A DNA stretch of 64,000 nt from an uncultured Gammaproteobacteria bacterium. GTDB lineage: Bacteria > Actinomycetota > Acidimicrobiia > Spongiisociales > SHLN01. Every line of letters begins with the position of its first letter. Within the stretch, counting starts at the first letter, position 1. Under the pieces are notes generated by a model. That model did not search any database, was not told the DNA's origin, and worked only from the letters and a program-made list of their open reading frames with translations. The stretch is taken from positions 5,618 to 69,617 of the forward strand of contig CAXMQV010000029.1 in NCBI GenBank assembly GCA_964195905.1, written 5' to 3'. Made by a program: the position numbers and the translations under genes. Below, piece after piece: positions 4,936-24,815 of the stretch.

Positions 4936-5607
4936 ATGTGCGGACGATTCGTCCAGAGCGCTTCGGCCGACGATTACGCCCGCTACTTCGGGGCCGACAT
5001 CGTCAAGGCCGAGAGCCTTGCGGGCAATTACAACGTGGCGCCCACCGACCAGGTCTTTGCGGTGGCCGAACACGATGGCGACCGCATCCTCGGCAGCTTC
5101 GGCTGGGGGTTAGTCCCGCATTGGTCGAACGATCGCAGCCGGGCGGCCCGCTTCATCAACGCCCGGGCCGAAACGATCACCGAAAAGCCTGCCTTCCGTG
5201 ACTCCTTCAAGACGAAACGGTGCCTCATTCCCGCCGACGGCTTCTACGAGTGGACCCGGCGCGGCGATCTCAAGATTCCCCACTTCATCTTCATTGGAAC
5301 CCATGCTCCGATGGCCTTGGCCGGCGTCTGGGCTTCGTGGAAAGACCCGGCAAGTGATGAGTGGGTCAGGACCTGTTCGATTGTCACGACCCGCCCAAAT
5401 CAGTTCATGCGCCCAATCCATGACCGGATGCCTGCCCTGCTTTCCGAGCCGGTCTGGGACACCTGGCTCGACCGCGACAATCGCGACACCGAGCAACTGC
5501 GTTCGCTCCTGGTCCCGCCTCCCGAACCATTGCTCGAAACCTACGAAGTATCCACGGAAGTAAACAGCGTGAGGAACAACCGTCCCGAGCTGCTCCTCCC
5601 GGTTTAG
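4936..5607 (+). CDS. SOS response-associated peptidase (SRAP/YedK/HMCES family abasic-site protein)
   Basis: N-terminal MCGRF (catalytic Cys2), YNVAPT, FINARAET, GFYEW, HDRMP. Confidence 0.95.
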   Translation: MCGRFVQSASADDYARYFGADIVKAESLAGNYNVAPTDQVFAVAEHDGDRILGSFGWGLVPHWSNDRSRAARFINARAETITEKPAFRDSFKTKRCLIPADGFYEWTRRGDLKIPHFIFIGTHAPMALAGVWASWKDPASDEWVRTCSIVTTRPNQFMRPIHDRMPALLSEPVWDTWLDRDNRDTEQLRSLLVPPPEPLLETYEVSTEVNSVRNNRPELLLPV

Positions 5608-5872: not shown

Positions 5873-6808
5873 ATGTTTCTCGCCTTTGCTTTGACTCTTG
5901 GCGGACTGGCTGTCCTCCCCCTGGCGGCAGACCGCTTCGTGGTGGCCGCCACCCGAATCAGTCGCAGTCTCGGCTTGTCCCCCATCCTGGTGGGTGCACT
6001 ACTTGTCGGTTTCGGAACCTCACTTCCCGAGATCGTGGTTTCCGGGTGGGCCGCGGCCAAAGGCGAAACGAGCTTCGCGGTCGCCAACGTGGTCGGCTCG
6101 AACGTTGCCAATCTGGCCCTCGTTCTCGGCGTCGCAGCTGTGATTCGACCGATAGTCGCCAGCCGGGGACTCATTCGGAAGGAAGGATCACTGGTTCTCA
6201 TTGTCACCCTCCTCTACGTCGTCCTTCACATCGATGGGGATATACAGAGGTGGGAAGGTGTGATTCTGCTGGTGGTGCTGGCCCTGGCGCTTGGCCTGCT
6301 CATCCGCTGGTCCGAATCGGGTTTGATAGAAGCCGAGGACGATGTTGGGCGGTTCGTTGCGGTTCGTCGCGAGCTCGCGATGGGTCTCATAACCATGACG
6401 ATCACGGTGGTGGCGGCCACCGTGCTCGTTGAGGGGGCGGAGCGTCTGGCCGTTGAGTTCGACATCCAGTCGGCCTTCATTGCCGCCACTCTCGTGGCGG
6501 TCGGCACCAGCCTGCCCGAGCTTGCCACCGCCGTTGCCGCCGTCCGCCGGCGTGAGGCAGATCTGGTGCTCGGAAACGTGCTCGGGTCGAACCTGTTCAA
6601 CGCGCTGGCAGTCGGTGGCATCGCCGGATTGGTCGGCCCCGGCGTTATCGACCCCGGATTCCGGGTCCTTCTTGTGGTCCTGCTCGGGATCACCGCCTTC
6701 ACGGGACTGCTAGGAGCAACGGGCAGCCGTTTGGTCCGATGGGAGGGATTCACTCTGCTGGGTGTCTTCTGCTTGTTCGTCTGGCTGGCCGGCTCGAACC
6801 TGGCGTAA
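5873..6808 (+). CDS. Calcium/sodium antiporter (CaCA superfamily, YrbG-like)
   Basis: Two alpha repeats: GFGTSLPE...VVGSNVAN and AVGTSLPE...VLGSNLFN. Confidence 0.93.
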   Translation: MFLAFALTLGGLAVLPLAADRFVVAATRISRSLGLSPILVGALLVGFGTSLPEIVVSGWAAAKGETSFAVANVVGSNVANLALVLGVAAVIRPIVASRGLIRKEGSLVLIVTLLYVVLHIDGDIQRWEGVILLVVLALALGLLIRWSESGLIEAEDDVGRFVAVRRELAMGLITMTITVVAATVLVEGAERLAVEFDIQSAFIAATLVAVGTSLPELATAVAAVRRREADLVLGNVLGSNLFNALAVGGIAGLVGPGVIDPGFRVLLVVLLGITAFTGLLGATGSRLVRWEGFTLLGVFCLFVWLAGSNLA

Positions 6809-6809
6809 A

Positions 6810-6938
6810 CAGCTACCAGCTACCAGCTGCCAGCTATCTGTCCTCGCGATTCCGCCCCCGGATGAGCGACGATGTGGTCCCCTCTGTGTGGCGTCAGTAC
6901 AGAGGGGAGGAGAACTGGTAGCTGGGAGCTGGTAGCTA
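6810..6938. repeat. Inverted pair of 7-bp arrays (CAGCTAC x4 ... CTGGTAG x3) enclosing a perfect 10-bp hairpin
   Basis: Arrays at 6810-6837 and 6915-6938 are reverse complements of each other; internal stem tcccctctgt(6878-87)/acagagggga(6899-6908). Confidence 0.85.
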
Positions 6939-6949
6939 TTGTGCCCGCC

Positions 6950-9685
6950 ATGACCGACCGTGACAGCGCGCTCCGAGCCGACATCCGGCGTCTCGGCACC
7001 AACCTCGGTGAGACCCTGGTTCGTCAGGTCGGGCCCGAGCTACTGTCGCTGGTTGAGGAGGTGCGGGCGATAACCAAGCGGCTCCGTAGCGAGGAGGATT
7101 CCGCTACCTCGGAGCTCGAAGAGGTCCTCGGCCGTCTCGACCTTGACACCACCATCAATCTCGTCAGGGCGTTCAGCGCGTTCTTCTTCCTCGCCAATGT
7201 CGCCGAGCAGACTCACCGGGTCAACGACCCGGCCTCCGGCACCGAGCCGGTCGATGACCCGCTTGCGGCGGCCGTCGACCGGATCCTCGAGGCAGACGTC
7301 GATCCCGCTCTAGTCGCCGACGTCATCTCACGTCTCGAGCTTCGGCCCGTGTTCACCGCCCATCCCACCGAGGCGGCCCGCCGGTCCCTGCTCACGAAGG
7401 TGGCCGACATCTCAGATCTCCTGACCGAGCGTGGCGATCCTCGTGTGACGGCGGCCCAGCAACGCCGCATCGATCGCCGGGTGAGTGAAATCATCGACCT
7501 CATGTGGCAGACCGATGAGCTCCGTCACGATCGGCCGACCCCTATCGACGAAGCTCGCTCAGCGGTGTACTACTTCGACGAGCTTTTCGAGGAGACAGTT
7601 GGGCCGTTGTCCGACACCCTCGACGAGCAGTTCGGGCGGCTGGGACGGCCACCCGGGCCCGACCAGTTCCCTATCCGGTTCGGGACCTGGGTGGGCGGAG
7701 ATAGGGACGGCAATCCGAATGTGACACCGGAGGTGACCGGTGAGGTGCTGGCCATCCAGCACGAGCACGGTCTCCGCAACCTCATCAAGGCGGTCGAGGA
7801 ACTGGCTGCGGAGCTCAGTGTCTCGGGCCGTCTGGTCGAGGCGTCACCAGCCCTGGAGGACTCTCTAGCGGAAGACCGGGCAGCGCTTCCCGAGGTGTTC
7901 GCTCGCTTTGGCGAGCTGAACGCTCGCGAGTCGCACCGCCTCAAATTGGCCTTCGTCCACCAGCGTCTTCACAACACGAGGCGGAGGTTCGAGGATGGCT
8001 CCCAGCACATCGCGAGCGTCGACTACCTGGACGGCGATGAGATGCTGGCCGACCTCCGGCTGATCTACGACTCGCTCATGGAGCGTCGCGGAGAGTTAAT
8101 CGCCGGCGGCTCGCTGACGCGGTTGATGCGACGTGTTGTCTGTTTCGGGTTCCGTCTCGCCACCATGGACATCCGGGAGGATGCCGGCCGGGTCCACGAT
8201 GTGGTCGCCGAGTTGTATGAACGGCTCGACGGTTCTTCCGATACGTACCTGGCGATGGATCGTCCGCAGCGGGCCGTCCTGCTGGCCGGTGAGCTGGAGA
8301 ACCGGCGTCCTCTGTCGAGCTCGCTGGTCGAACTGGCCGGGGACAATGGCTCCACCGTGGGAGCGTTTCGGGCCACCCGAAATGCGCTTGATACCTACGG
8401 CCCGGGGACGATCGAGAGCTTCATCCTGTCGATGACCGTGGCCGCCGATGACGTTCTGGCTGCGGCAGTGGTTGCGCGAGAGGCCGGTCTCATCGATATC
8501 CATGCCGGGGTGGCCCGAATCGGTTTCGTTCCACTCTTCGAGACCATCGGTGAGATCCGGGGTGGAGCCGCCAGCGTCGATGAGCTGCTCACGGTCCCCG
8601 CCTATCGGCAGATCGTCGCGCTGCGGGGAGATGTCCAGGAAGTGATGCTCGGATACTCGGACTCGAACAAGCACGGCGGGATAACCACCTCGCAGTGGGA
8701 GCTCTATCAGGCCACCCGCGCCATCAGAGACGTGGCGGCCCGGCACGGGGTGAAGCTGCGGTTCTTCCACGGCCGGGGGGGAACGGTTGGCCGGGGCGGC
8801 GGTCCAACCGGAGACGCCATCATGGCGCAGGCTTTCGGTACGGTCGACGCCGCCCTCAAGCTCACCGAACAGGGAGAGGTCATCGCCGACAAGTACGGGT
8901 TGCCGGCGCTCGCCTACCGCAACCTGGAGGTGGCGCTGGCAGCCGTCCTTGAGGCCTCCCTGCTCCATCGGACATCGCGGGCCGATGCCGCAACGCTGGC
9001 GCGCTGGTTCGATGTCATGGACACGATCTCGGACGCCGCCTTTGGCGCCTACCGGGCACTCGTCGACGATCCCGACCTCGTCCCGTATTTCCTGACCTCG
9101 ACTCCGGTCGAGGAACTCGGCGCGATGAACATCGGCTCTCGCCCCGCTCGACGACCCGGCACGGGCTCAGGCCTCGATGGATTGCGAGCCATTCCGTGGG
9201 TGTTCGGGTGGACGCAATCTCGCCAGGTGGTGCCGGGTTGGTACGGGGTGGGGACCGGACTGGAGGCGGCTCGCCTGGCCGGACACGGAGAAGTGATCGA
9301 TGAGATGTATGAGCGATGGTCGTTCTTCCGGACCTTCCTTTCCAACGTCGAGATGACACTCACCAAGACCGATCTCGCAGTGGCTGCCCGTTATGTCAAG
9401 CGGCTCGTCGACCCCGAGCATCAGCACGTGTTTGAGGACATCCGCAGCGAGTACCTGCGAACCGTCCAGGAAACGCTGGCGGTGACCGGGCAAGCGAACT
9501 TGCTCAACCGCAACCCGACTCTGGCCAGGACCCTGGCGGTTCGCGATGTCTACATCGACCCGATGAGCTTCGTACAGGTCGAATTGCTCGCCAAAGCCCG
9601 GGCCGGCGGCGGTGACGACCAGCTCCGAAGGGCCCTCCTGTCGACGGTGAACGGAATCGCAGCCGGCTTGCGCAACACGGGGTGA
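6950..9685 (+). CDS. ppc: Phosphoenolpyruvate carboxylase (bacterial type)
   Basis: VFTAHPTE, QEVMLGYSDSNK, FHGRGGTVGRGGGP, LRAIPWVFGWTQSR, C-terminal RNTG. Start at MTDRD, 7 nt after TATTGT. Confidence 0.97.
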   Translation: MTDRDSALRADIRRLGTNLGETLVRQVGPELLSLVEEVRAITKRLRSEEDSATSELEEVLGRLDLDTTINLVRAFSAFFFLANVAEQTHRVNDPASGTEPVDDPLAAAVDRILEADVDPALVADVISRLELRPVFTAHPTEAARRSLLTKVADISDLLTERGDPRVTAAQQRRIDRRVSEIIDLMWQTDELRHDRPTPIDEARSAVYYFDELFEETVGPLSDTLDEQFGRLGRPPGPDQFPIRFGTWVGGDRDGNPNVTPEVTGEVLAIQHEHGLRNLIKAVEELAAELSVSGRLVEASPALEDSLAEDRAALPEVFARFGELNARESHRLKLAFVHQRLHNTRRRFEDGSQHIASVDYLDGDEMLADLRLIYDSLMERRGELIAGGSLTRLMRRVVCFGFRLATMDIREDAGRVHDVVAELYERLDGSSDTYLAMDRPQRAVLLAGELENRRPLSSSLVELAGDNGSTVGAFRATRNALDTYGPGTIESFILSMTVAADDVLAAAVVAREAGLIDIHAGVARIGFVPLFETIGEIRGGAASVDELLTVPAYRQIVALRGDVQEVMLGYSDSNKHGGITTSQWELYQATRAIRDVAARHGVKLRFFHGRGGTVGRGGGPTGDAIMAQAFGTVDAALKLTEQGEVIADKYGLPALAYRNLEVALAAVLEASLLHRTSRADAATLARWFDVMDTISDAAFGAYRALVDDPDLVPYFLTSTPVEELGAMNIGSRPARRPGTGSGLDGLRAIPWVFGWTQSRQVVPGWYGVGTGLEAARLAGHGEVIDEMYERWSFFRTFLSNVEMTLTKTDLAVAARYVKRLVDPEHQHVFEDIRSEYLRTVQETLAVTGQANLLNRNPTLARTLAVRDVYIDPMSFVQVELLAKARAGGGDDQLRRALLSTVNGIAAGLRNTG

Positions 9686-10026: not shown

Positions 10027-10674
10027 ATGACTGACATGGGATTTCGCGATCGGCGCGACGCGGGCCGACAACTCGGCGTCGCCCTCGCCGACTACCGCGA
10101 TCGAAAGCCGCTCGTCGTTGGCCTCCCGCGCGGTGGGGTGGTGGTAGCCGCCGAGGTGGCCGCCGCCCTCGAAGCCGACCTCGACATCCTGGTGGTACGC
10201 AAGCTCGGCGCCCCCGGTCAACCCGAGCTCGGTCTGGGAGCTATTGCCGAAGGCGGAGTGCTGCTGTTGAACAAGCCACTCATGCGCCAGGTCCGGGTGA
10301 CGAAGGAACAGCTCCAATCGACAATCGATGCCGAAAACGAGGAGCTCAAGCGGCGACTGGAGACCTATCGCGGAGACCGCCAACCGATTGATGTGACAGA
10401 TCGGCTCGTCATCGTGGTCGACGATGGTCTCGCCACCGGTGGAACCGTCCGGGCTGCCGCCGGGGCCTTGCAACACCTCGGTGCCGGCTCCCTCGTTCTG
10501 GCCGTGCCGGTTGGAGCTCCGCGCACCGTCGAAGAGCTAGGTCCCCTCTTCGCCGACATCGTGTGCCTTGAAACCCCGGCTACCTTCTGGGCCATTGGCC
10601 AGTTCTACGCCGACTTTGCCCAGACAACCGATGACGAGGTTGTGCGCCTTCTGGCAGGTCGGACCGACGTCTGA
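10027..10674 (+). CDS. Phosphoribosyltransferase family protein
   Basis: FRDRRDAGRQL, LPRGGV, PRPP-binding loop VIVVDDGLATGGT. Confidence 0.92.
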   Translation: MTDMGFRDRRDAGRQLGVALADYRDRKPLVVGLPRGGVVVAAEVAAALEADLDILVVRKLGAPGQPELGLGAIAEGGVLLLNKPLMRQVRVTKEQLQSTIDAENEELKRRLETYRGDRQPIDVTDRLVIVVDDGLATGGTVRAAAGALQHLGAGSLVLAVPVGAPRTVEELGPLFADIVCLETPATFWAIGQFYADFAQTTDDEVVRLLAGRTDV

Positions 10675-13603: not shown

Positions 13604-14827
13604 TTACCCGCCGGGGAGCTCAGGGAGCCGGTGGATCAGCTCGGCCAGGAGGGCAGCCCGCGGGACGATGCTGTCGATTTCGATGTGCTCGTCGGCGGTC
13701 ATGAGCCCGCCCCCGAGTGGTCCGAGCCCATCGAGGGTCGTCGTCGTGGGTCGGCGGAAGGCTGAGCTGCCGGCGGCGGCCGATGCGAAGGCGTCGATTT
13801 CCACGTCGAGCTCGGTACCGATGTGACGGGCCAGGGAAAGCATGCGGTCGGTCTCCTCATCCCACACCACGCCCGGGCGGTGGCTGTGCATGTGAAATTC
13901 GATCTCAGCCCGCGAGCCACCGGCGACGTCTGCCGCGATCTCGCGCATCCGACCCGTCGTTTCCTCCCACTTCAGGAGTGCCCTGGTCCGGATATCGACG
14001 ACTGCCTCGGCCGATGCAGGCACGATGCTGCGGCGGCGACCGGCCCTGGCAATGGTCACCGTCACCAGCGTGCCGGACTCGGGATCGGAAAGAGCATTGA
14101 ACGCGAGGATGAGCCGAGCCAGGACTTCGAGAGCATTCACTCCTGTGTCGCGGGCGCTCCCGGTATGCGCCTCCAGACCGGTGATTCGCAGGGACCCCAC
14201 GCCAATATGACCGCGAGCGGCCATGAGCTTGCCTCCACGGCGGGCGCATTCCACACACAGGCACCAGTCGGCTCCGGCGGCGGCCTCCTCGATCACGGGT
14301 CGGGATCCCAGACTGCCGGCTTGCTCGTCGCCCGCCAGCACCAATGCGATGTCCGGTCGCTCGATCCCCAGCGCATGGAGAGCCTGCAGTGCCGCCACCA
14401 GCACGACGAGCCCGCCTTTCATGTCGGCAATCCCGGGGCCGTAGGCGCGTCCGGCCTCGATGCGAAATGGCGTGTCGGCCAGTGCCCCGACCGGAAAGGC
14501 GGTATCGAGGTCTCCGAGCAGCAGCAAGCGGCCCGGTTCGGCGCCCGCCGCGAATCCCGAGTACGTGGCTCCCAGGTCGGTATACGGGATGCCGGGGGAG
14601 AAAAGCTCCTCCAGCCACCGGAGTGATGGAGTGACCGGGCGCTGGGGTGTGGCCTCAAGCGAGAACCCGACCGGGGTCAGCTCGGTGGCCAGGGTGGCGG
14701 CGACCGCCGCTACGCCTGCTGGATGTGCCGCGTGGCTTTCGGTGATCACGAGTTGTTCGAGAAGCTCGAACAGACGGGTCCGCTCTCCCTTGAGCCACCC
14801 TGCTATTGCCTGCGCCTCGTTCCTCAC
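13604..14827 (-). CDS. M20/M25/M40 family protein (carboxypeptidase G2-like) with substituted metal ligands
   Basis: LLLGDLDT, GPGIADMKGG, GDEQAGS, CVEC, AHTG, GLGPLGGGLMTADEH. GTG start 7 nt after TAAGCT. Confidence 0.85.
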   Translation of the reverse strand: MRNEAQAIAGWLKGERTRLFELLEQLVITESHAAHPAGVAAVAATLATELTPVGFSLEATPQRPVTPSLRWLEELFSPGIPYTDLGATYSGFAAGAEPGRLLLLGDLDTAFPVGALADTPFRIEAGRAYGPGIADMKGGLVVLVAALQALHALGIERPDIALVLAGDEQAGSLGSRPVIEEAAAGADWCLCVECARRGGKLMAARGHIGVGSLRITGLEAHTGSARDTGVNALEVLARLILAFNALSDPESGTLVTVTIARAGRRRSIVPASAEAVVDIRTRALLKWEETTGRMREIAADVAGGSRAEIEFHMHSHRPGVVWDEETDRMLSLARHIGTELDVEIDAFASAAAGSSAFRRPTTTTLDGLGPLGGGLMTADEHIEIDSIVPRAALLAELIHRLPELPGG

Positions 14828-14893: not shown

Positions 14894-15919
14894 ATGGCGA
14901 AGAAACCTGAGTTTGGGGTTCGTCTTCCGGTCGCTGGACCGCTGGCGAATACCGCCGATATCCGCCGCAGCGCGGTCAAAACCGAGGAGCTTGGATTTGA
15001 CGCGCTGTGGGTACATGACTTCCTGGCGTGGACCACGTTTCAGGACCAACACCACGTGTCCTGCGGATCGCGCGAGGCCGTGGAGGCAGCGGACGCCCCT
15101 CCCGTCTTTTTCGAGTCGCTCACCAACCTTGCATTCCTGGCCGGCATCACAAGCGAAATCCGCCTCGGCGTCGCCGTGCTGTGTCTGCCTTACCGCAATC
15201 CGATTGTGGCGGCCAAACAGGTCGCCAACATCGATGTTCTCAGCAATGGGCGGCTCATACTGGGCATTGGCACAGGGGCGCCGGCCAGTACCCACAATGT
15301 CGATTTTGAGGTCCTCGGGGTCGAACGAAAAACCAAGTACCACGTCACTCGCGACTACCTGCGGGCCATGAAGGCTGTCTGGACGGAGGACAATCCGTCA
15401 TATGAGGGCGAGTACTTCAGCTTCCCGGAGACCGAGATCTGGCCCAAGCCGGTCCAGAAGCCCTATCCGCCGATCTGGACCGGCGGCCACGGCCCCACCG
15501 CCATGGACATCACCGCCGAATTCTCCACCGGCTGGATTCCGCCCTGGATTCCGCCCGAGGAGTACCCCGAACGAATCCGCAGTCTCGATGAGCTGGCCGT
15601 CGAGAAGGGTCGGGGCGGGACCGAGTTCGATATTGCCACCGAGGTGTACGTGTCGCTCGCCGAATCACGCGATGAGGCGATTAGCTCTGCCGAAAAAACG
15701 CTCGGAGTTCTGACCGAAGGCTTCGATCACACCGCCACCCAGGATTCCATCGCGGCGGCCGGGCTCATCGGCAGCGCCGATGACATCGGCGAGAAGATCG
15801 GCAAGTACATCGAGGCCGGGGTCAATCACTACGAGATGAAGTTCATCTATCACACGGTCGACCATTTGCTGGAGCAGCTGGAACATTTCGCCTCGGCCGT
15901 CACGCCTGCGTTCCGCTAG
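14894..15919 (+). CDS. LLM class flavin/F420-dependent oxidoreductase (LLM1)
   Basis: GFDALWVHD, IRLGVAVLCLPYRNP, LSNGRLILGIGTG, PKPVQKPYPPIWTGG. Confidence 0.9.
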   Translation: MAKKPEFGVRLPVAGPLANTADIRRSAVKTEELGFDALWVHDFLAWTTFQDQHHVSCGSREAVEAADAPPVFFESLTNLAFLAGITSEIRLGVAVLCLPYRNPIVAAKQVANIDVLSNGRLILGIGTGAPASTHNVDFEVLGVERKTKYHVTRDYLRAMKAVWTEDNPSYEGEYFSFPETEIWPKPVQKPYPPIWTGGHGPTAMDITAEFSTGWIPPWIPPEEYPERIRSLDELAVEKGRGGTEFDIATEVYVSLAESRDEAISSAEKTLGVLTEGFDHTATQDSIAAAGLIGSADDIGEKIGKYIEAGVNHYEMKFIYHTVDHLLEQLEHFASAVTPAFR

Positions 15920-15936: not shown

Positions 15937-16920
15937 ATGAAATTTGCATGGTTGTGCAGCCACGAGTCCTATCAGCCCGAGGTCCTGGTCGATCAGGCGG
16001 TTCTTGCCGAACAAGTCGGGTTCGACGTGGTACTCGGCTCGGATCACTTTCACCCGTGGGTGGATGACACATCGGCGGCCGGGTTCGTCTGGTCCTGGTT
16101 TGGGGCGGTGGCGGCCCGAACCGACCACGTCGAGTTGGCCACGTCGGTTACCTGTCCGCTGTTTCACTATCACCCGGCCCTCATCGCCCAGGCGGCTGCC
16201 ACCGTCGACCGCCTCTCAGGCGGCCGGTTCATCCTCGGCGTTGGAACCGGTGAGAACATCAACGAGGGCCCGATGGGCTTCGAATTCCCCGGCTACAAGG
16301 AGCGCATCGGCCGCATGCAGGAGGCGCTGGAGATCATGCACCGGCTTTTCGATGGCGAGAAGCTTGATTTCGCCGGTGAGTACTACGTCGCCGATAAGGC
16401 GAAGCTGTACAGCCCGCCGATCAGCCGGATTCCGATTTGGATGGCGGCCGGAGGGCCGAAGTCGGCAACATTTGCCGGCGGGCATGCTGATGGCTTGATT
16501 ACGAGCGTCAAGGTCCCTGCCGAGACTCAGGAGAAGGTCATAGACCCGTTCCATGCCGGAACGAAGGAGGCTGGCAAGGAAGAAGGGCACATCATGGCCA
16601 CCCGCTGGTGTGTGCTGGCCGAGCACGATGACGAAGCGTGGGAAGCGCTCGGGAGCATGCGCGGCTTGCGCGCTCCGGGTCGACTGGAAGTGGTCGATCC
16701 GATGGTGCTGCGGGAGCGAGCCGACGAGATGGACCGCGATGAGATCCTCAGTAAGTACACGATCGTTTCGTCCATCGATGAGCTGTACGAGATGTACAAG
16801 CCGCTCGTCGAGATGGGCGCCGACTACGTAGCCATCCAGATCGCCAGCACCGACCCCGATCGGACGCTTGCGATGGTCGGATCCGAGCTGTTGCCGGAGT
16901 TACGCAAGCTCGCGGGATGA
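15937..16920 (+). CDS. LLM class F420-dependent oxidoreductase, FGD/G6PDH-like (LLM2)
   Basis: SDHFHPW, TSVTCP..YHPALIAQAAAT, LGVGTGENINE; these match the F420-dependent glucose-6-phosphate dehydrogenase-like subfamily. Confidence 0.88.
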   Translation: MKFAWLCSHESYQPEVLVDQAVLAEQVGFDVVLGSDHFHPWVDDTSAAGFVWSWFGAVAARTDHVELATSVTCPLFHYHPALIAQAAATVDRLSGGRFILGVGTGENINEGPMGFEFPGYKERIGRMQEALEIMHRLFDGEKLDFAGEYYVADKAKLYSPPISRIPIWMAAGGPKSATFAGGHADGLITSVKVPAETQEKVIDPFHAGTKEAGKEEGHIMATRWCVLAEHDDEAWEALGSMRGLRAPGRLEVVDPMVLRERADEMDRDEILSKYTIVSSIDELYEMYKPLVEMGADYVAIQIASTDPDRTLAMVGSELLPELRKLAG

Positions 16921-16946: not shown

Positions 16947-17642
16947 CTACGCGCTCGCTCCGCCGAGATAGACGGCAGCTGTGTCCGCCCCGATGACCGT
17001 GGCGTACTTCTGGTTGAGCTCGAACAGGTTGACCCGGTGTGAGGTTTCGCTCCGGTCGAACGTCGCCTCAGCGACGACGAACGGGTTGAGGTTGTAGGAA
17101 AAGGCATCAACCGAGCTCGCCCGAACGCATCCACTGGTGGATCCGCCTGCTAGCAGAACGGTGTCGACTCCCAACTGGATGAGCCACGTCACAAGCGGCG
17201 TCGCGAAGAAGACGCTCGGTTTCGATTTGGTGACTACGAGGTCGCCAGGCTGGGGAGCGATCTCGTCAACGATGTCGTGTGCGCGCGGGGACTCATCGAC
17301 GGTGCCCAGTTTGGAGGCCCATCCCCCGGCCTCTGCCCTGGTCGGCCTCGGCGCGTTGCGCGAGTAGACGACCGGCACTCCGGCTTGCCGGGCTTCGCTC
17401 GCCAGCCGGGCGATGTGATCGATCGCCTGCCAGGCCGGCTCACCACAGGCAAGCGGGTAGTGACCACCGCCCGACCGCTCCCCGGTGAATGCGTAGGTCA
17501 CATCCACGATGAGGAGGGCTGGGTGGGTGCCTGCCGAGGCAGTGCGGCCGTATCCGGCGGCCGCATAGGTCGCCAACTCTTCAGAGCTGAAGAGGCCGGC
17601 CGCCAGGCTTCCGACGTCGAAACCGGTGAGTGCTTCACTCAC
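16947..17642 (-). CDS. Isochorismatase-family cysteine amidohydrolase (NicF/N-carbamoylsarcosine amidase-like)
   Basis: D-K-C triad: LLIVDVTYAF, VTKSKPSVFFAT, GGSTSGCVRASSVDAFS. Confidence 0.9.
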   Translation of the reverse strand: MSEALTGFDVGSLAAGLFSSEELATYAAAGYGRTASAGTHPALLIVDVTYAFTGERSGGGHYPLACGEPAWQAIDHIARLASEARQAGVPVVYSRNAPRPTRAEAGGWASKLGTVDESPRAHDIVDEIAPQPGDLVVTKSKPSVFFATPLVTWLIQLGVDTVLLAGGSTSGCVRASSVDAFSYNLNPFVVAEATFDRSETSHRVNLFELNQKYATVIGADTAAVYLGGASA

Positions 17643-18607
17643 TGCTTGAGCTCGTCAAGGCCGGCTTCGGCGAGTAGCTCGAGCTGCTCGAGGTAGCGGG
17701 CGAAGTCGAGGCGAAGATCGAGCACGACATAGTCGAGTCCCCGTTCGGCGAACTTGGCGAGCTCGCGCTTGGCATCCTCGGGAGTGCCGGCAATGACCAG
17801 CCCCTCCAAGTCCTCGATCGTGCTGAAGGAACCGGAGGCCGGAGGCTTCCAGAACTTCGCCCCCGCCGAGCTTTGCGCCAGGGCCGCAACGTCGATGTTT
17901 TCGCGTGCCTTGCTCCGATCCCGATTCACGTTCACAATTGGCACCACTCCGACGGTGAGCTGCTTGCCGCTCTCGGCACTCTGCTCGTCGAGGTACTTGA
18001 GGCGGGCATCGAGGGTGGCGAGAGGGATGCGCCCCGGGAGCCAGCCGTCCATGTACTCCAGGCTGCGGCGGATCGATGCCTGGGTGGTGCCTCCGTATAC
18101 GAGCGGGATCGGGGCGACCGGTTTGGGTTCGAGGGTGATGTCCTCGAACTGGAATACTTCCCCCTGGTACGAGACGTTGTCCGACGACCACACCGCCCGC
18201 AGGATCTCCATGGTTTCAGCAAAGATCTGCTCCCGTTGCTCGCCATCGAGTCCGGCGGCGGCGAATTCGCGGGAATTGTTGCCGAGCCCGTACCCGGCAA
18301 TGACACGGCCGCCCGACAGTACGCTGAGGGCGGCCAGGTTCTGGGCCACCTTGAGAGGCCAGCGAATGGGTATGAGCACCGCGCTCCCCAGCTTCACCCG
18401 GGTCGTGACGGAACTGATCGCCGCCAGGGTCATGAGTGGTTCGATGAAGGTGATGTCGGTTCCCTCCATCCCATGCGGTGTCCAGAGGATGTGATCGCGC
18501 ACCCACAGCGAGTCGTAGCCCAATTCCTCGATTCGGCGGCTGCCATCGATGAGAGTCTCGATCGTGGCATGTTCGCCGAAGTGGGGGAGCAGCACTCCAA
18601 TTTCCAT
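17639..18607 (-). CDS. LLM class flavin/F420-dependent oxidoreductase (LLM3)
   Basis: MEIGVLLPHF, GYDSLWVRDH, VKLGSAVLIP, LSGGRVIAGYGLG; 4-nt overlap with the isochorismatase start. Confidence 0.9.
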   Translation of the reverse strand: MEIGVLLPHFGEHATIETLIDGSRRIEELGYDSLWVRDHILWTPHGMEGTDITFIEPLMTLAAISSVTTRVKLGSAVLIPIRWPLKVAQNLAALSVLSGGRVIAGYGLGNNSREFAAAGLDGEQREQIFAETMEILRAVWSSDNVSYQGEVFQFEDITLEPKPVAPIPLVYGGTTQASIRRSLEYMDGWLPGRIPLATLDARLKYLDEQSAESGKQLTVGVVPIVNVNRDRSKARENIDVAALAQSSAGAKFWKPPASGSFSTIEDLEGLVIAGTPEDAKRELAKFAERGLDYVVLDLRLDFARYLEQLELLAEAGLDELKQ

Positions 18608-18999: not shown

Positions 19000-19115
19000 C
19001 GTGCTCCAGTGATCATCGATAACAACCAGATTAGGCGCCGACCGCTGGCCGGCCGTTGCCGAGACGGGTCGACGCCCTGGCGGGTACAGTCAGTTCGTTC
19101 GCCAGGAGGTACACG

Positions 19116-20012
19116 TTGGAAACCGTCAGCTTCTTCTCGTCGCCCGGCGTCCCGCTGGTCGCCGATCTCTACCTTCCCGACTCCGAGCCTCCCGTATCCG
19201 GCCATCCGACGATCGTTGCCTGCCTGGGATGGGGGAGCGTCAAGGAGCTAATGGAGCCGTGGGGACAGGCACTGGCGGGAGCCGGCTATGCCGTCCTCAT
19301 TCCCGACTACCGGGGCTTCGGCGCCAGCGGGGGAACCCGCGGCCAGTGCTTCCCATCTGAACATATCGATGACATCCGGGCGGCTATCACCTTCGCCGGT
19401 GAGCGCGGTGGACTGGATGCCGGACGGCTTGCCCTGCTCGGCGTGAGTTATGGAGGAGCGATCGCCGTTGCCGCCGGGGGCGTGGACGAACGTCCGGCCG
19501 CCATCATTTCGATCGTGGGGTACGGCAGCGGCGAGCGTCACCTGCGGGCGGTGCGATCGCCGGAGCAGTGGACGGAGTTCCGGGCACGGCTGGCGGCCGA
19601 TAGAGACCACCGAGTACTCACGGGCCGGAGCGAGGACATCGATCCGGACGAGATCTTGCTGCGAGATGCAGAGGCTCGCGCCTGGCGCACCCGGGTCGAG
19701 GAGCAATACCCGCATATGGCGTTTCGCACCACGCTGGAATCGGCGGAGCGGATCATCGAGTTCCGACCGGAGCGCTCCCTGCCCTACGACCCTCCCAAAC
19801 CGATCTTGCTCATTCACGCCGGGGACGACACGATGGTTCCCGTCGAGGAGTCCCGGACAATGTGGGAGAGGGCCGTCGAACCCAAGCGTCTCGTCGTCAT
19901 TCCCGGAATCGGCCACCACGAGGTCCACGCCGGTGATGCCTTTCGCCAGGTGATCGGCTATGCCGACGAGTGGCTGCAAACTCATGTCGTTCGAGATCCC
20001 GGTCATGGGTGA
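19116..20012 (+). CDS. Alpha/beta fold hydrolase
   Basis: PDYRGFGASGG, nucleophile elbow GVSYGG, LIHAGDD, GHHE. TTG start 6 nt after AGGAGG. Confidence 0.88.
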   Translation: METVSFFSSPGVPLVADLYLPDSEPPVSGHPTIVACLGWGSVKELMEPWGQALAGAGYAVLIPDYRGFGASGGTRGQCFPSEHIDDIRAAITFAGERGGLDAGRLALLGVSYGGAIAVAAGGVDERPAAIISIVGYGSGERHLRAVRSPEQWTEFRARLAADRDHRVLTGRSEDIDPDEILLRDAEARAWRTRVEEQYPHMAFRTTLESAERIIEFRPERSLPYDPPKPILLIHAGDDTMVPVEESRTMWERAVEPKRLVVIPGIGHHEVHAGDAFRQVIGYADEWLQTHVVRDPGHG

Positions 20013-21006
20013 GTTCCCGGCCCGGTTCGGGCTCGTGTTGCCGCATTTCGGCTCCGGGCCTGACGCGGCCCATCTCCTCGATATTGCCCGGCAGGCAGAA
20101 ACTGCCGGGTTTGATTCGCTGTGGGTGCGTGATCGGTTGGTGGCTGGTGCACCCCACGGGCTACTGCTCGAAGCCGGCGGGACCACCTTCCTCGAGCCGC
20201 TGCTCACCTTGGCGGCCGTCGCCGCCGTCACCAATCGGATACATCTCGGCACCGCCGTGCTGTTGCCCAATCGGCATCCTTTGCGTCTGGCACAAGAGGT
20301 GGGAACGCTGTGGCGCCTCGCCCCCGAAAGGCTTCTCCTCGGGCTCGGGCTCGGGGTGGGACCCGGCAACTTTGAGCCGCTCGGATTCGACTACGACACC
20401 CGTCTCGAGCTCTTCGAGGAGATCGCCGAAGTCCTGCGAGGGCTGCCGGCGGCAGGTCCGCTCCACCATCAGGGAACCCACTTCTCATTCGAGGATCTCG
20501 AGATCAACCCGCAACCGGGCGCCCGGGTCCCGCTCTACTACGGCGGCGTAAGCCGAGCGGCGGTCCGCCGTGCCTTCGAGTGGGCCGACGGCTGGATCGC
20601 CGGCCGGCTACCGCACGACACGTTCCTATCCCGCATGCAACTGGTGAAGAGATATGAGGCCGATACCGGACGGAATCTCGACATTGCCACGATGCCTATC
20701 ACCCTGGTTGATGACGGTGACGGCCGCCACCTGGCAACTGCGCGCGAGGCGGTGGCGACGCTCGCCCGCAGCGCCGAGGGCGCTCGCGATTGGATCAAGC
20801 CGCCATCAGGCCGTTTCGAGACGGTCGATGATCTTTCGGGCCTGCTCATTTCGGGACCGCCGGATCGATGCGCCGGGCAGGTGGGAGCCATGCTCGAGGC
20901 GGGTGTGACCCACATCGTCTTCGATTTACGTCTCGTGTTCGACGATTTCGAACGCCAGATCGAACTGCTGGCCGGGCAGGTCATTCCGGCGTTCAGTGGA
21001 AGCTGA
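19984..21006 (+). CDS. LLM class flavin/F420-dependent oxidoreductase (LLM4; paralog of LLM3)
   Basis: FGLVLPHF, GFDSLWVRDR, IHLGTAVLLP, PLYYGG. The start may instead be ATG 20005. Confidence 0.88.
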   Translation: MSFEIPVMGEFPARFGLVLPHFGSGPDAAHLLDIARQAETAGFDSLWVRDRLVAGAPHGLLLEAGGTTFLEPLLTLAAVAAVTNRIHLGTAVLLPNRHPLRLAQEVGTLWRLAPERLLLGLGLGVGPGNFEPLGFDYDTRLELFEEIAEVLRGLPAAGPLHHQGTHFSFEDLEINPQPGARVPLYYGGVSRAAVRRAFEWADGWIAGRLPHDTFLSRMQLVKRYEADTGRNLDIATMPITLVDDGDGRHLATAREAVATLARSAEGARDWIKPPSGRFETVDDLSGLLISGPPDRCAGQVGAMLEAGVTHIVFDLRLVFDDFERQIELLAGQVIPAFSGS

Positions 21007-21068: not shown

Positions 21069-21158
21069 GCCTCGAAGTCATGGGACCTTGGGAGGGGGTT
21101 TGACTTCCCCCCGGCAACTTGAAATAGCGGTCGCGTGATCGCCGAGAAAGGATTGTTC

Positions 21159-22298
21159 ATGAGGCGGATATCGAAACTGCTGGGCGTTTTTCTCGCCTTA
21201 GCCCTCATTGCTGCGGCTTGCGGCAGCGATGACAGCTCTTCCGACACCACGACCGCAGCCGGAGGGGGCGACGTCGAGCAAGTCTTCTTCATCCTCGACT
21301 GGGTGCCGAAAGGCCAGACATCGCCCTTCTACCTTGCCCTCGACAAAGGGTTCTGGGCCGATCGCGGCCTGGCGGTTCAGATCACTCGCGGGTTCGGATC
21401 CGGCGACACCTCCGCCCGCATCGGATTGGGTGAAGGCGACTTCGGGTTTGCCGGTGTGGGCGCGGTGATGCGCACGATCGCCGAGGGCCTGCCGCTCGTC
21501 GAGATCGCGGCCATTGCCTCGACTGCCCCGACCGCGGTGTTCGCCGACCCGGCGGCCGGAGTCTCGGGCGATAATCCGTCGAGCCTCGTTGGTCTTCGTG
21601 GTGCGGTCGACGCCGGTGACGAGAACGACCAGCTCTTCAAGGCATTCGCCGGTTCGGCCGGCATCGATTACGAGGGGGTCGACTGGCAGTACGTGGACGG
21701 TGCCGGCATCGGCTCCATCGCCTCGGGCCAGGCCGACTTTGTCATGGACTGGATCACGAATCTGCCCGAGTGGTGGCTGGCCGATCCTCCGATCGAGCCT
21801 GACACCTACTGGGTCGGTCGCGCCGTCGACATCTACGGCAATGGCCTCATCACCCGACCTGAGTTGCTCGAATCGAATCCCGACCTGGTCCGGCGCTTCG
21901 TTGAGGGCGCCCTGGCCGGCTACGAGTACGTGATCGAGGGTGGGGTGGCTGCCCACAACGAGTCGATCGATGCCCTCCTCAAGTACAACCCTGAGTTGAA
22001 GGAACAACCAAACGCCCGTGAATTCCATCTCGGGAACTTGCAGCTGTTCTTGACGCTCATGTTGACCGAGGACGTCAGAGACGACGGCATCGGTTACTTC
22101 GATCCGGATAAGAAGCAGCGGAGCCTCGACTTCATCAACGACTACCTGCTCGATTCGCCCTTGACGCTCGACCAGGCCTTCATTACGGACCTGATCATCG
22201 AGAAGGGCGATGTGAAGATCGATGACTTCGACGGAGCCAGGGCGCAACTGGCGACAGTGTTGGGGAGGGAGAACCCCCTCTCCGCGTTCCTGGAATAG
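21159..22298 (+). CDS. ABC transporter substrate-binding lipoprotein, NMT1/THI5/SsuA-like
   Basis: Lipobox LIAAAC; FILDWVPKGQTSPFYLALDKGFWADRGL; IYGNGLIT. ATG after RBS GAAAGGA. Confidence 0.9.
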   Translation: MRRISKLLGVFLALALIAAACGSDDSSSDTTTAAGGGDVEQVFFILDWVPKGQTSPFYLALDKGFWADRGLAVQITRGFGSGDTSARIGLGEGDFGFAGVGAVMRTIAEGLPLVEIAAIASTAPTAVFADPAAGVSGDNPSSLVGLRGAVDAGDENDQLFKAFAGSAGIDYEGVDWQYVDGAGIGSIASGQADFVMDWITNLPEWWLADPPIEPDTYWVGRAVDIYGNGLITRPELLESNPDLVRRFVEGALAGYEYVIEGGVAAHNESIDALLKYNPELKEQPNAREFHLGNLQLFLTLMLTEDVRDDGIGYFDPDKKQRSLDFINDYLLDSPLTLDQAFITDLIIEKGDVKIDDFDGARAQLATVLGRENPLSAFLE

Positions 22299-22313
22299 CT
22301 TGACGCACGTCGT

Positions 22314-22347
22314 GGGACCCCGCGCCGCTCTGCGGCGCGGGGTCTCC
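22314..22347 (+). other. GC-rich stem-loop between the SBP and ATPase genes (mRNA-stabilising or attenuating hairpin)
   Basis: gggaccccgcgccgc-tct-gcggcgcggggtctc. Confidence 0.65.
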
Positions 22348-22379
22348 GAGCCCCGAGGAATATCTGGAGGCATGCGCTA

Positions 22380-23207
22380 ATGGGCATCAAACTCGATCGC
22401 CTGGACAAGGTCTTCCAGACGGACGACCTGACCGTGCAGGCACTCCGTGACGTTTCTGCGGAGATCGGCGACAGCGAGTTCGTCTCCATCATCGGGCCGA
22501 GTGGATGTGGAAAGAGCACTCTGCTCCGGCTGGTTTCCGGCCTCCTTCCTCCAACTCAGGGAACCGTGTACCTTGACGGGACTCCGGTGGAGGGTCCGGC
22601 CGGAAACATCGGCTTCGTGTTCCAGGCTCCGACGCTCCTGAAGTGGCGGACGGTTTTCAGGAATGTCATGTTCCCGTACGAGGTGCTGGCTTCACAGCGC
22701 AAGGCGACCGGATCAAAGGAGGACTACGAGGACAGGGCGCGCATGCTGCTGAAGATGGCGGGTCTCGAGGACTTCCCCGACGCCTATCCCAAGCAACTGT
22801 CGGGCGGCATGCAGCAGCGGGTTTCGATTTGCCGGGCACTCATCCACGACCCCGAACTGCTGCTGATGGATGAGCCGTTCGGGGCCCTTGACGAGTTCAC
22901 TCGCGAAAGGATGAACGAAGAGCTGCTGAGAATCTGGCGCGAGACCCGCAAGACGGTGATCTTCGTGACCCACCACATCCCCGAAGCGGTCTTCCTGTCG
23001 GATCGGATTCTCGTGATGTCCCCCCGACCAGGCACCATTCTCGGCGAGGTGGTGGTCGACCTTCCCAGGCCCAGGATCGCCGAGATGCGCGAGAGCGTTG
23101 AATTTCTAGAACAGGTCGTAGCCACTCGCCATCTCATCGGTATCAGGCCGGGTGATGATTCGCTCAGCCCCGATTTCTCGTCGCCACTCAAGGACGGGAG
23201 CGGGTGA
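22380..23207 (+). CDS. ABC transporter ATP-binding protein (TauB/SsuB/NrtD family)
   Basis: GPSGCGKST, YPKQLSGGMQQR, LLLMDEPFGALD. Confidence 0.95.
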   Translation: MGIKLDRLDKVFQTDDLTVQALRDVSAEIGDSEFVSIIGPSGCGKSTLLRLVSGLLPPTQGTVYLDGTPVEGPAGNIGFVFQAPTLLKWRTVFRNVMFPYEVLASQRKATGSKEDYEDRARMLLKMAGLEDFPDAYPKQLSGGMQQRVSICRALIHDPELLLMDEPFGALDEFTRERMNEELLRIWRETRKTVIFVTHHIPEAVFLSDRILVMSPRPGTILGEVVVDLPRPRIAEMRESVEFLEQVVATRHLIGIRPGDDSLSPDFSSPLKDGSG

Positions 23208-23208
23208 G

Positions 23209-24015
23209 GTGAGCACGACGCTGAGCGATCCGGCCCGGGCGGAGGCCGGCGCTCCGATGCCGAGCAGGCGTACCGAGCAGATCCGCCGGTTCTCCGATCC
23301 GATCCTGTTCGCCGCGCTGTTCGTCTTCGGTTGGCAGGCCTTTGTGTGGATCTCCGGCTTCCATCCGGTTGTTCTTCCCCCTCCGGCACGCGTCTTCCGG
23401 ATCCTTGCTAACCAGGGCGATTTCCTGGTGGAAAACATGCTCGTGACGATGCGAACCATCGTCTGGGGCTTCGTCATCGGAGGCCTTCTCGGCTTCGTGG
23501 CCGGGGTCCTCATCAACTATTTCGAGCGCTTCCGCCGGGCCGTTTACCCGATCCTGGTGGCGCTGTATGTGATCCCCAAAGCCGTATTCATTCCGCTGTT
23601 CATTCTCTGGTGGGGAGTCGGACCGCTCTACAAGATCCTCGTGACGGTTCTGTTGGCATTCTTCCCCGTGACGGAGAACACCATCACCGGACTGCAGGGA
23701 GTGGATCGTGAGATGATGGAACTCACCCAGTCGCTCGGTGGCAGAAGGTGGTTCGCCTTCCGGAAGGTTGCCCTGCCTTTCTCGCTGCCCTTCATTCTGG
23801 CGGGTCTGCGAATCGGGCTCACCGAGGCGTTCATCGGGGGAGTCCTCAGCGAGATCCTGGTTCCCAGCACCGGGATCGGTTCCCGAATCGTCGAAGCCGC
23901 AGCCTTCTCCAATACCGAGTTCATCATCGCTTCGATCATGGTGGTGGCTTCGTTCGGCATAGCGGCGTACTTCCTGTTCCTGTGGATCGAGAAGAGGCTG
24001 ACATTTTGGCAGTGA
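23209..24015 (+). CDS. ABC transporter permease (SsuC/TauC family)
   Basis: VLPPP..V, IPKAVFIPLFILWWG, EAA-like loop, LPFILAGLRIG. Confidence 0.92.
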   Translation: MSTTLSDPARAEAGAPMPSRRTEQIRRFSDPILFAALFVFGWQAFVWISGFHPVVLPPPARVFRILANQGDFLVENMLVTMRTIVWGFVIGGLLGFVAGVLINYFERFRRAVYPILVALYVIPKAVFIPLFILWWGVGPLYKILVTVLLAFFPVTENTITGLQGVDREMMELTQSLGGRRWFAFRKVALPFSLPFILAGLRIGLTEAFIGGVLSEILVPSTGIGSRIVEAAAFSNTEFIIASIMVVASFGIAAYFLFLWIEKRLTFWQ

Positions 24016-24815
24016 TTCACGATTCCGTTGCGCCGCCCGGCCGGGCCCGGAAGATCGCCCGCCGCCTGTGGAACACGAGAGAGCTGCTGTTGACGCTGCT
24101 CGGGATTCTCGTGTTCTGGATCGTCATCATCGAGGTGCGAGATTTCCATCGCATCGTGCTCCCGTCTCCGGGCGCTGTTGTCGATGCGTTTACCGGCAAC
24201 CTCAGCGAGTATGCCAGCGCCGGCTTCATCACCTTCTACGAAATGATCCTCGGCTTCATCGCCGGCGGGGCGCTCGGCTTCTTCTCTGCGATCGGCATTT
24301 TCTATTCGCCGTTCCTGCGGAGATCCCTCTACCCGTTGCTGCTTGGCTTTCGAATCGTTCCCAAAGTGGCGTTCGTCCCGCTCTTTCTCGTGTGGTTCGG
24401 GATCGGGGTTGGAGTGAAGGTGGCGTTGGCATCCTTCGCGATCTTCTTCCTCATCCTCGTGCAAACGCTGCTCGGTCTCACCAGCGTCGAACCGGAGCTC
24501 GTCGAGCTCGGGCGCTCTCTGAAAATGAGCGAGCTTTCGCTACTCCGGCGTATCCGCCTCCCGGCGGCCCTCCCGGCGATCATGGTCGGGGTGAAGTTGG
24601 GAATCACCTACGCCCTTACCAACGTCGTGGTGGCTGAGATGGTGGTCGCAACCAACGGGCTCGGGTTTCTGGTAGTGGAAGCACGCTCGAAAATCAAGAC
24701 CGACGAGATGATCGCGGCCATCTTCGTCGTGGCGTTCATCGGGCTGATCGTGTACGCAGTCGGGTTGTGGGTAGAGCGAAAGGTCGTGTTCTGGTACGTG
24801 GAGGAGAACCGGTGA
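24012..24815 (+). CDS. ABC transporter permease (SsuC/TauC family), second subunit
   Basis: GTGA overlap with the previous stop; VLPSPGAV, VPKVAFVPLFLVWFG, RLPAALPAIMVGVK. Confidence 0.92.
   Translation: MIHDSVAPPGRARKIARRLWNTRELLLTLLGILVFWIVIIEVRDFHRIVLPSPGAVVDAFTGNLSEYASAGFITFYEMILGFIAGGALGFFSAIGIFYSPFLRRSLYPLLLGFRIVPKVAFVPLFLVWFGIGVGVKVALASFAIFFLILVQTLLGLTSVEPELVELGRSLKMSELSLLRRIRLPAALPAIMVGVKLGITYALTNVVVAEMVVATNGLGFLVVEARSKIKTDEMIAAIFVVAFIGLIVYAVGLWVERKVVFWYVEENR

Follow-up and report, generated by a model that had tools for sequence, protein, structure and literature searches.

M20 enzymes are the textbook co-catalytic di-zinc hydrolases and include carboxypeptidase G2 (CPG2, glucarpidase), the antibiotic target DapE, the aminoacylases and the biocatalytic carbamoylases. 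The stretch of DNA analysed here (64,000 nucleotides, called the window below) encodes an M20 protein in which part of the usual metal site is replaced, and this raises the question of whether such a protein is still an enzyme and what kind of site it would use.

To place the protein among its relatives, we compared it with domain models, curated families and solved structures. The reading frame, which an earlier note made from the sequence had described as intact, contains zero internal stops and has a GC3 of 0.77. Its product passes the Pfam gathering cut-offs of PF01546 Peptidase_M20 (4e-21, 76.2 bits against 24.6) and PF07687 M20_dimer (4e-13, 49.8 bits against 21). The closest solved relative is CPG2 (1cg2; phmmer E 2e-32), a match that rises to E 8e-59 with a profile of 60 homologous sequences while the alignment is unchanged. 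An AF2 model made from the 60-sequence alignment (pLDDT 95.4, pTM 0.93) found CPG2 as the top Foldseek match (E 1e-33, TM 0.77), followed by PepT, PahZ2, DapE and ArgE, and the DapE, PepT and ArgE matches each had a probability of 1.0. The model and these matches indicate that the two-domain alpha/beta fold of CPG2 and DapE is present. Every curated NCBIfam cut-off was nevertheless missed: the best score was 211.2 bits against 349 for NF004788 (glutamate carboxypeptidase / CPG2), and NF005602 (183 against 357) and NF005678 (141 against 386) were missed as well. A carbamoylase model was not among the 25 best NCBIfam matches, and the database names of the relatives are only "M20/M25/M40 family metallo-hydrolase" or "glutamate carboxypeptidase". 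The protein is probably cytoplasmic, since no signal peptide is evident at its N-terminus.

The residue correspondences with CPG2 were taken from two alignments that agree, the phmmer alignment of the single sequence to 1cg2 and that of the 60-sequence profile. The CPG2 fragment in our own alignments was rebuilt from HMMER output and its numbering is off by one near His385, which does not affect the correspondence. GDLDT aligns with SHMDT of CPG2 (His112 > Asp106), ADMKGG with ADDKGG (the bridging Asp141 kept as Asp135), GDEQ with TDEE (the catalytic Glu175 kept as Glu168, and Glu176 > Gln169), VEC with FEP (Glu200 kept as Glu193) and GGGLMT with GFGYHS (His385 > Met376, in a column framed by the invariant G372 and E380). 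These are the replacements and retentions that the earlier note had read from the motifs, and the codons GAC, CAA and ATG that it gave for the three changes were confirmed. A single-base sequencing error is impossible for Met376, because the change from His to Met takes three base changes. Where the family has five di-metal ligands (His, bridging Asp, Glu, Glu/Asp and His), this protein has D-D-Q-E-M and retains just Asp135 and Glu193. It is thus an M20 member by fold and domain models, yet it lacks the set of five ligands that characterizes the family. The codons concerned and the genes around them are listed in Table 1.

Table 1. Features of the window discussed in the text, with positions counted from its first nucleotide.
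Feature	Position	Strand	Remarks
L-hydantoinase-like cyclic amidohydrolase, 489 aa	12126..13595	+	Pfam Amidohydro_1; converges on the M20 gene, stop codons 8 bp apart
Type-A M20 gene, 407 aa, GTG start	13604..14827	-	CPG2-like catalytic and dimerisation domains, D-D-E-Q-E-M site
Codon ATG, M376, replaces CPG2 ligand His385	13700..13702	-	Type A has Met (99%), canonical relatives His (100%)
A351-A352-G353-S354 loop, replaces canonical GG[ST]D	13766..13777	-	Clade compared with canonical relatives
H316-R317, clade-invariant His before the Arg aligned with CPG2 R324	13877..13882	-	Clade compared with canonical relatives
Codons GAA-TGC, E193 (ligand Glu200, kept) and C194 (replaces Pro201)	14246..14251	-	Type A has Cys (100%), other sequences Pro, Ser, Ala or Met
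Codons GAG-CAA, E168 (general base, kept) and Q169 (replaces ligand Glu176)	14321..14326	-	Type A has Gln (99%), canonical relatives Glu (100%)
Codon GAC, D135, bridging Asp141 of CPG2, kept	14423..14425	-	Alignment to CPG2 and clade comparison
Codon GAC, D106, replaces CPG2 ligand His112	14510..14512	-	Type A has Asp (100%), canonical relatives His (100%)
LLM1, F420-type luciferase-like oxidoreductase	14894..15919	+	TIGR03619 above cut-off; divergent from the M20 gene, 66-bp spacer
LLM2	15937..16920	+	TIGR03557 family
Isochorismatase-family hydrolase	16947..17642	-	Weak RutB and biuret-hydrolase likeness
LLM3	17639..18607	-	TIGR03619 family
Small cupin, 130 aa	18607..18999	-	Cupin_2 in the syntenic loci L003, L004 and L005
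Alpha/beta hydrolase, S15/S33-like	19056..20012	+	
LLM4	19960..21006	+	
NMT1-type binding protein, ABC ATPase and two permeases	21135..24815	+	Start of the last ORF uncertain

In DapE the ligands pair as {H67, D100, E163} and {D100, E135, H349}. The mono-zinc form of that enzyme is reported, in work by Nocek and colleagues from 2010, to be active and to have the first site (His67/Asp100/Glu163) filled before the second. By analogy with this pairing, it was right to state, as the earlier note did, that the second site has lost its non-bridging ligands and that the first has become all-carboxylate. The mono-zinc DapE structures 3isz and 4o23, both among the Foldseek matches of our model, are a precedent for an M20 protein that works with the first site alone, and its counterpart here is D106/D135/E193. 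DapE, however, has the complete set of five ligands and is able to take up a second zinc, whereas in the present protein the second site has been removed at the gene level and the first has Asp instead of His. Table 2 of PMC13058870 lists the five metal-binding residues of HiDapE without site assignment, together with the roles of other DapE residues, including the Asp that orients the His ligand (D108 in our protein).

The next step was to determine how far these substitutions are shared. A search of 5.8 billion proteins returned 1036 matches at E <= 1e-10, and the best 120 of the 1036 were typed for the six positions that correspond to CPG2 His112, Asp141, Glu175, Glu176, Glu200 and His385. 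The pattern D-D-E-Q-E-M was found in 118 of these 120 homologues, at 43-84% identity; the two exceptions are one sequence with Leu for Met and one that is incomplete. Such consistency excludes a chance pattern. An exhaustive HMMER scan of 1.84 billion cluster representatives revealed a sharp boundary, with the DDEQEM clade dominating the top 25 or so, and every full-length sequence among these best representatives has the D/Q/M triad. Beneath these representatives, the canonical HDEEEH pattern was carried by 111 of the 150 listed, an HDEEEC group had 10 members, and intermediates were represented by two HDEQEM proteins (P0130, P0132) and one HDEEEL protein (P0135). Comparison with orthologues gave a dN/dS of 0.16-0.25 for the gene, which is under purifying selection. 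The D/Q/M triad is therefore fixed in a monophyletic clade that spans several phyla, as the homologue alignment proposed in the earlier note was meant to reveal, and the decaying singleton among close homologues with H/E/H that it had also considered is not what we found. We refer to the DDEQEM clade as type A and to the HDEQEM proteins as type B.

The remaining pocket was examined by comparing 126 type-A members with 104 canonical relatives. E168, D135, E193, D108, K137 and E380 are kept invariant or nearly so, and so are H221 and R280 of the dimerisation domain (CPG2 H229 and R288) and R317 (CPG2 R324). The general base E168, aligned with CPG2 E175, is conserved in 100% of the clade and the oxyanion residue H221 in 98%. 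Other positions switched relative to the canonical proteins and are each fixed in at least 96% of type A: Pro201 > Cys194 (100%), Gly323 > His316 (100%), Asn275 > Ser267 and the GG[ST]D loop, which became AAGS (A352 in 96%). Trp287, Thr377 and an inserted segment with an invariant Trp71 reach the same level of fixation and also set the clade apart, and His32 is clade-specific and conserved in 92% of the members. A 26-position active-site signature is identical in 94 sequences, and the protein of the window carries its modal form, with all of the clade markers (D106, Q169, M376, C194, H316, the AAGS loop, the W71 insert and R265-R266-S267).

Direct comparison with CPG2 (M20A, 27% identity) summarizes these relations. 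Both proteins have the two-domain architecture, the bridging Asp, the catalytic Glu, Glu200, His229, Arg288 and Arg324, and type A differs by His112>Asp, Glu176>Gln, His385>Met, Pro201>Cys, GGTD>AAGS and Asn275>Ser, by an extra segment of about 20 residues around Trp71 and by the lack of an evident signal peptide. The earlier note had also asked whether other residues, such as the His of ADEH, fill the ligand positions. That residue, H381, is absent from the positions conserved in at least 90% of type A and was judged unlikely as a substitute ligand on this ground; C194, H316 and in most members H32, which are specific to the clade, could take part in the site.

The phylogenetic tree of 87 sequences (IQ-TREE, quick search, LG+C20, midpoint rooting; the row B_L024, a poorly trimmed ORF with an extremely long branch, is disregarded) recovered type A as monophyletic with an SH-aLRT of 99 and the protein of the window inside it. 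Type B is its sister group (support 97), and the two are joined with a support of 92. Outward from them come the HDEEEL protein (98), the HDEEEC group (92) and, outermost, the canonical HDEEEH proteins. From this order it follows that the Asp/Glu176/His385 site was lost first, through His > Cys > Leu/Met and then Glu > Gln. The change of His112 to Asp came only later, on one branch with Pro201 > Cys and GGSD > AAGS. Type B shares with type A the Trp71 insert, the Arg-Arg motif, His316, Gln169 and Met376, and differs from it in keeping His112, the GGSD loop and Asn275 and in lacking Cys194. The HDEEEC group (P0138, P0139, P0143, P0146, P0150, P0156, P0159, P0175, P0199 and P0262) is a sizeable CPG2-like sister group that has Cys for the last His ligand and Gln where canonical proteins have Asn275. 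Full-text literature searches brought up no publication that deals with such a substituted M20 clade or with the gene cluster described below, and no family model or solved structure was found that covers type A. The clade is a widespread, uncharacterised branch of M20, and its type B, HDEEEC and HDEEEL relatives are uncharacterised too.

In the window, the M20 gene is part of a gene block that spans about 12.7 kb. Its convergent neighbour has the Arthrobacter L-hydantoinase 1gkr as best PDB match (E 5e-68; the next match has 2e-45) and stays under every NCBIfam equivalog cut-off, with 251 against 358 bits for allantoinase and lower scores than required for DHOase and hydantoinase too. By eye, its HxH, Lys and SDHAPH ligand motifs are kept. 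Four luciferase-like (F420/flavin) paralogues occur in this one cluster, between 14894 and 21006. A phosphoribosyltransferase (PyrR/UPRTase-like, weak match) is encoded just upstream of the cluster at 10027-10674 (+), and further genes on this flank are ordinary: PEP carboxylase at 6872-9685 (+), a Na/Ca exchanger at 5873-6808 (+) and SRAP (SOS-response-associated peptidase) at 4936-5607 (+).

The context of the gene elsewhere was surveyed in 36 non-redundant type-A loci, all from metagenome-assembled genomes (MAGs). An orthologue of the amidohydrolase, 53-94% identical to the copy in the window, was present in 18 of the 36 loci, upstream or downstream of the M20 gene and on either strand. The paired loci belong to Acidimicrobiia and other Actinomycetota, Chloroflexota, Dormibacterota and an unclassified bacterial MAG (L031). 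Across phyla the amidohydrolase was more conserved than its M20 partner, which showed 40-84% identity. At an Armatimonadota locus (L033) no amidohydrolase was seen within a right flank of a mere 570 bp. Gene pairing of the hydantoinase/carbamoylase type is seen in 16 of the 36 loci, spread over four phyla, where the two genes are within 400 bp of each other. The same pairing logic is known from the HyuC/AmaB L-N-carbamoylases and the M20 beta-ureidopropionases, which are paired with hydantoinases or dihydropyrimidinases; unlike type A, both of these enzyme groups belong to another M20 branch and have canonical His-rich ligands.

Luciferase-like and cupin genes are usually found near the amidohydrolase-paired type-A gene. 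An LLM1 orthologue is divergent from the M20 gene in L001, L003, L004, L009, L011-L014, L016 and L037, and tblastn identified the divergent copy as LLM1 in the Acidimicrobiia loci; the copy present in distant loci of other phyla was assigned as LLM3-like. The operon of L002 consists of amidase, amidohydrolase, M20 and isochorismatase genes. The cluster of L005 additionally has RidA and an NCS1 permease, and a DHO_dh gene and the NCS1 permease flank it. Together with the phosphoribosyltransferase of the window, these flanks give a hint of pyrimidine-like substrates.

A second context was detected in Rokubacteria/Methylomirabilota, Burkholderiales and others, in which type A forms a tandem operon with type B. 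Such tandems occur in 11 loci (L040, L007, L017-L021, L024-L026 and L030), and type B begins 30-150 bp downstream of type A. In L040 (7712-11616) and L007 the operon starts with a 430-aa DapE/ArgE-like M20 gene; its stop and the start of the next gene, type A, overlap by 4 nt, and type B comes third. This first paralogue seems to be without the last His ligand. In L040, the one tandem locus whose Pfam annotation is complete, an Opp-type ABC importer precedes the operon. Operons with three M20 genes may encode a heteromeric M20 system.

Within the class of the window's genome, type A was detected in two of 301 genomes (this genome and one other), and the two further genomes sampled from the genus both lack it. 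These counts rule out a lineage-typical gene. Type A is a patchily distributed accessory trait, and the cluster probably arrived by horizontal transfer as an accessory island. The window's genome, a MAG of 147 contigs that is 90% complete, has four further M20 genes, all distant from type A, and a tblastn search found no type-B gene in it.

The reading that we prefer, with chances that we put at about even, is that type A is an active mononuclear amidohydrolase which would use its D/D/E site on the ring-opened product of the neighbouring enzyme. An active enzyme is favoured because the catalytic Glu is invariant, the pocket is remodelled and the adjacency to the hydantoinase-like gene is conserved, and also because the D/D/E triad is retained under purifying selection. 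The earlier note had left the choice between a mononuclear or non-Zn enzyme and a pseudo-enzyme; that proposal held against the objections tested, and gene context and pocket now tip it towards the enzyme. For metal occupancy, metal identity, catalysis and substrate we infer the following scheme from the sequences. Type A would have abandoned the co-catalytic two-zinc centre, its second site (Asp141/Glu176/His385) being abolished by Gln169 and Met376, while the first site would persist as the all-carboxylate triad Asp106/Asp135/Glu193. Such a triad should favour a metal that is harder than zinc or otherwise unlike it (Mn, Fe, Mg or Co), perhaps with help from the new invariant Cys194. Glu168 would remain the general base, in a pocket completed by two residues of the dimerisation domain, His221 and Arg280. 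Type A would then be similar to a DapE with one metal, but with harder ligands, and would act on its neighbour's product in the way known from classical hydantoinase/carbamoylase pairs. The substrate would most likely be an N-carbamoyl or N-acyl ring-opened product of the adjacent L-hydantoinase-like enzyme, and both enzymes may be part of a cluster for the catabolism of imported N-heterocycles, with the F420/flavin LLM oxidoreductases and the NMT1-type ABC importer.

Several observations count against a mononuclear enzyme. Three of the five canonical ligands are gone, and with Asp in place of His and the second metal lost the site could equally be metal-free. D108 is invariant in type A although its partner His has disappeared. 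The M20 and hydantoinase-like genes of the window are convergent and not co-transcribed, and type A is transcribed together with two further M20 genes in other lineages, which fits a non-catalytic subunit too.

That last arrangement leads to the first alternative, which we hold to be rather improbable: type A could be a pseudo-enzyme that serves as a substrate-binding, scaffold or regulatory partner of an M20 subunit, as in an A/B heterodimer, or of the neighbouring amidohydrolase. An M20 heterodimer has been proposed for AbgA/AbgB. The loss of three ligands and the tight A-B tandems in the 11 loci of Rokubacteria, Burkholderiales and others agree with such a role, as does the completion of M20 active sites across the dimer interface given in Table 2 of PMC13058870. 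The lack of a type-B paralogue in the 90% complete genome of the window speaks against it, however, and type B itself is without the second metal site. Moreover, type A keeps invariant the Glu of the general base, the bridging Asp, Glu193, the oxyanion His and the Arg residues that bind carboxylate, and its pocket acquired further invariant positions, a pattern that would be unusual in a mere scaffold.

The second alternative keeps the enzyme and changes its mechanism, and we regard it as less probable still. The site would be metal-free or would bind metal only in the presence of substrate, with a Cys194 thiol and Glu168 (and Lys137) in catalysis, or the reaction would be non-hydrolytic. Cys194 is fully conserved in type A only, directly follows the ligand Glu193 and arises on the same branch as His112>Asp, and neither Glu168 nor Lys137 varies. 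In a related enzyme, the M28 aminopeptidase of Aeromonas, the residue that follows the corresponding ligand is part of the lining of the substrate pocket. The fold matches include 5-nitroanthranilate aminohydrolase, an M20 enzyme in which metal and substrate bind together. Lys137, however, is equally conserved in the canonical di-zinc relatives, and a metal explains the three carboxylates kept at ligand positions more simply. A broader form of this idea, to which we give the same small chance, is that type A switched its catalytic strategy and became either a metal-free Cys194/Glu168(/Lys137) hydrolase or a mononuclear Mn/Fe enzyme with chemistry new to M20. If so, the series HDEEEH > HDEEEC > HDEEEL > HDEQEM > DDEQEM would preserve the evolutionary intermediates, including obligate A/B heteromers, and a Cys194 hydrolase would be convergent with the nitrilase-superfamily carbamoylases, which use Glu-Lys-Cys catalysis.

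Finally, a sequencing or assembly error, a singleton or a dying pseudogene, to which the unusual residues alone and the fragmented MAG might point, has almost no probability, being refuted by the homologue conservation (the same residues in more than 100 independent assemblies), the scan of cluster representatives, a dN/dS well under 1, the intact frame with its GC3 of 0.77 and the three-base codon change at Met376.

Taken as an active mononuclear amidohydrolase, type A becomes a candidate for a new decarbamoylase or deacylase, with an L-hydantoinase-like enzyme as its partner, and the candidate pair comes from uncultured Acidimicrobiia, Chloroflexota and Rokubacteria. The automatic names "glutamate carboxypeptidase" and "M20 metallo-hydrolase" are probably wrong in detail for these genes. 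The living intermediates allow a stepwise reconstruction of how the metal site was lost, and the clade offers a natural test of how far M20 catalysis needs two metals.
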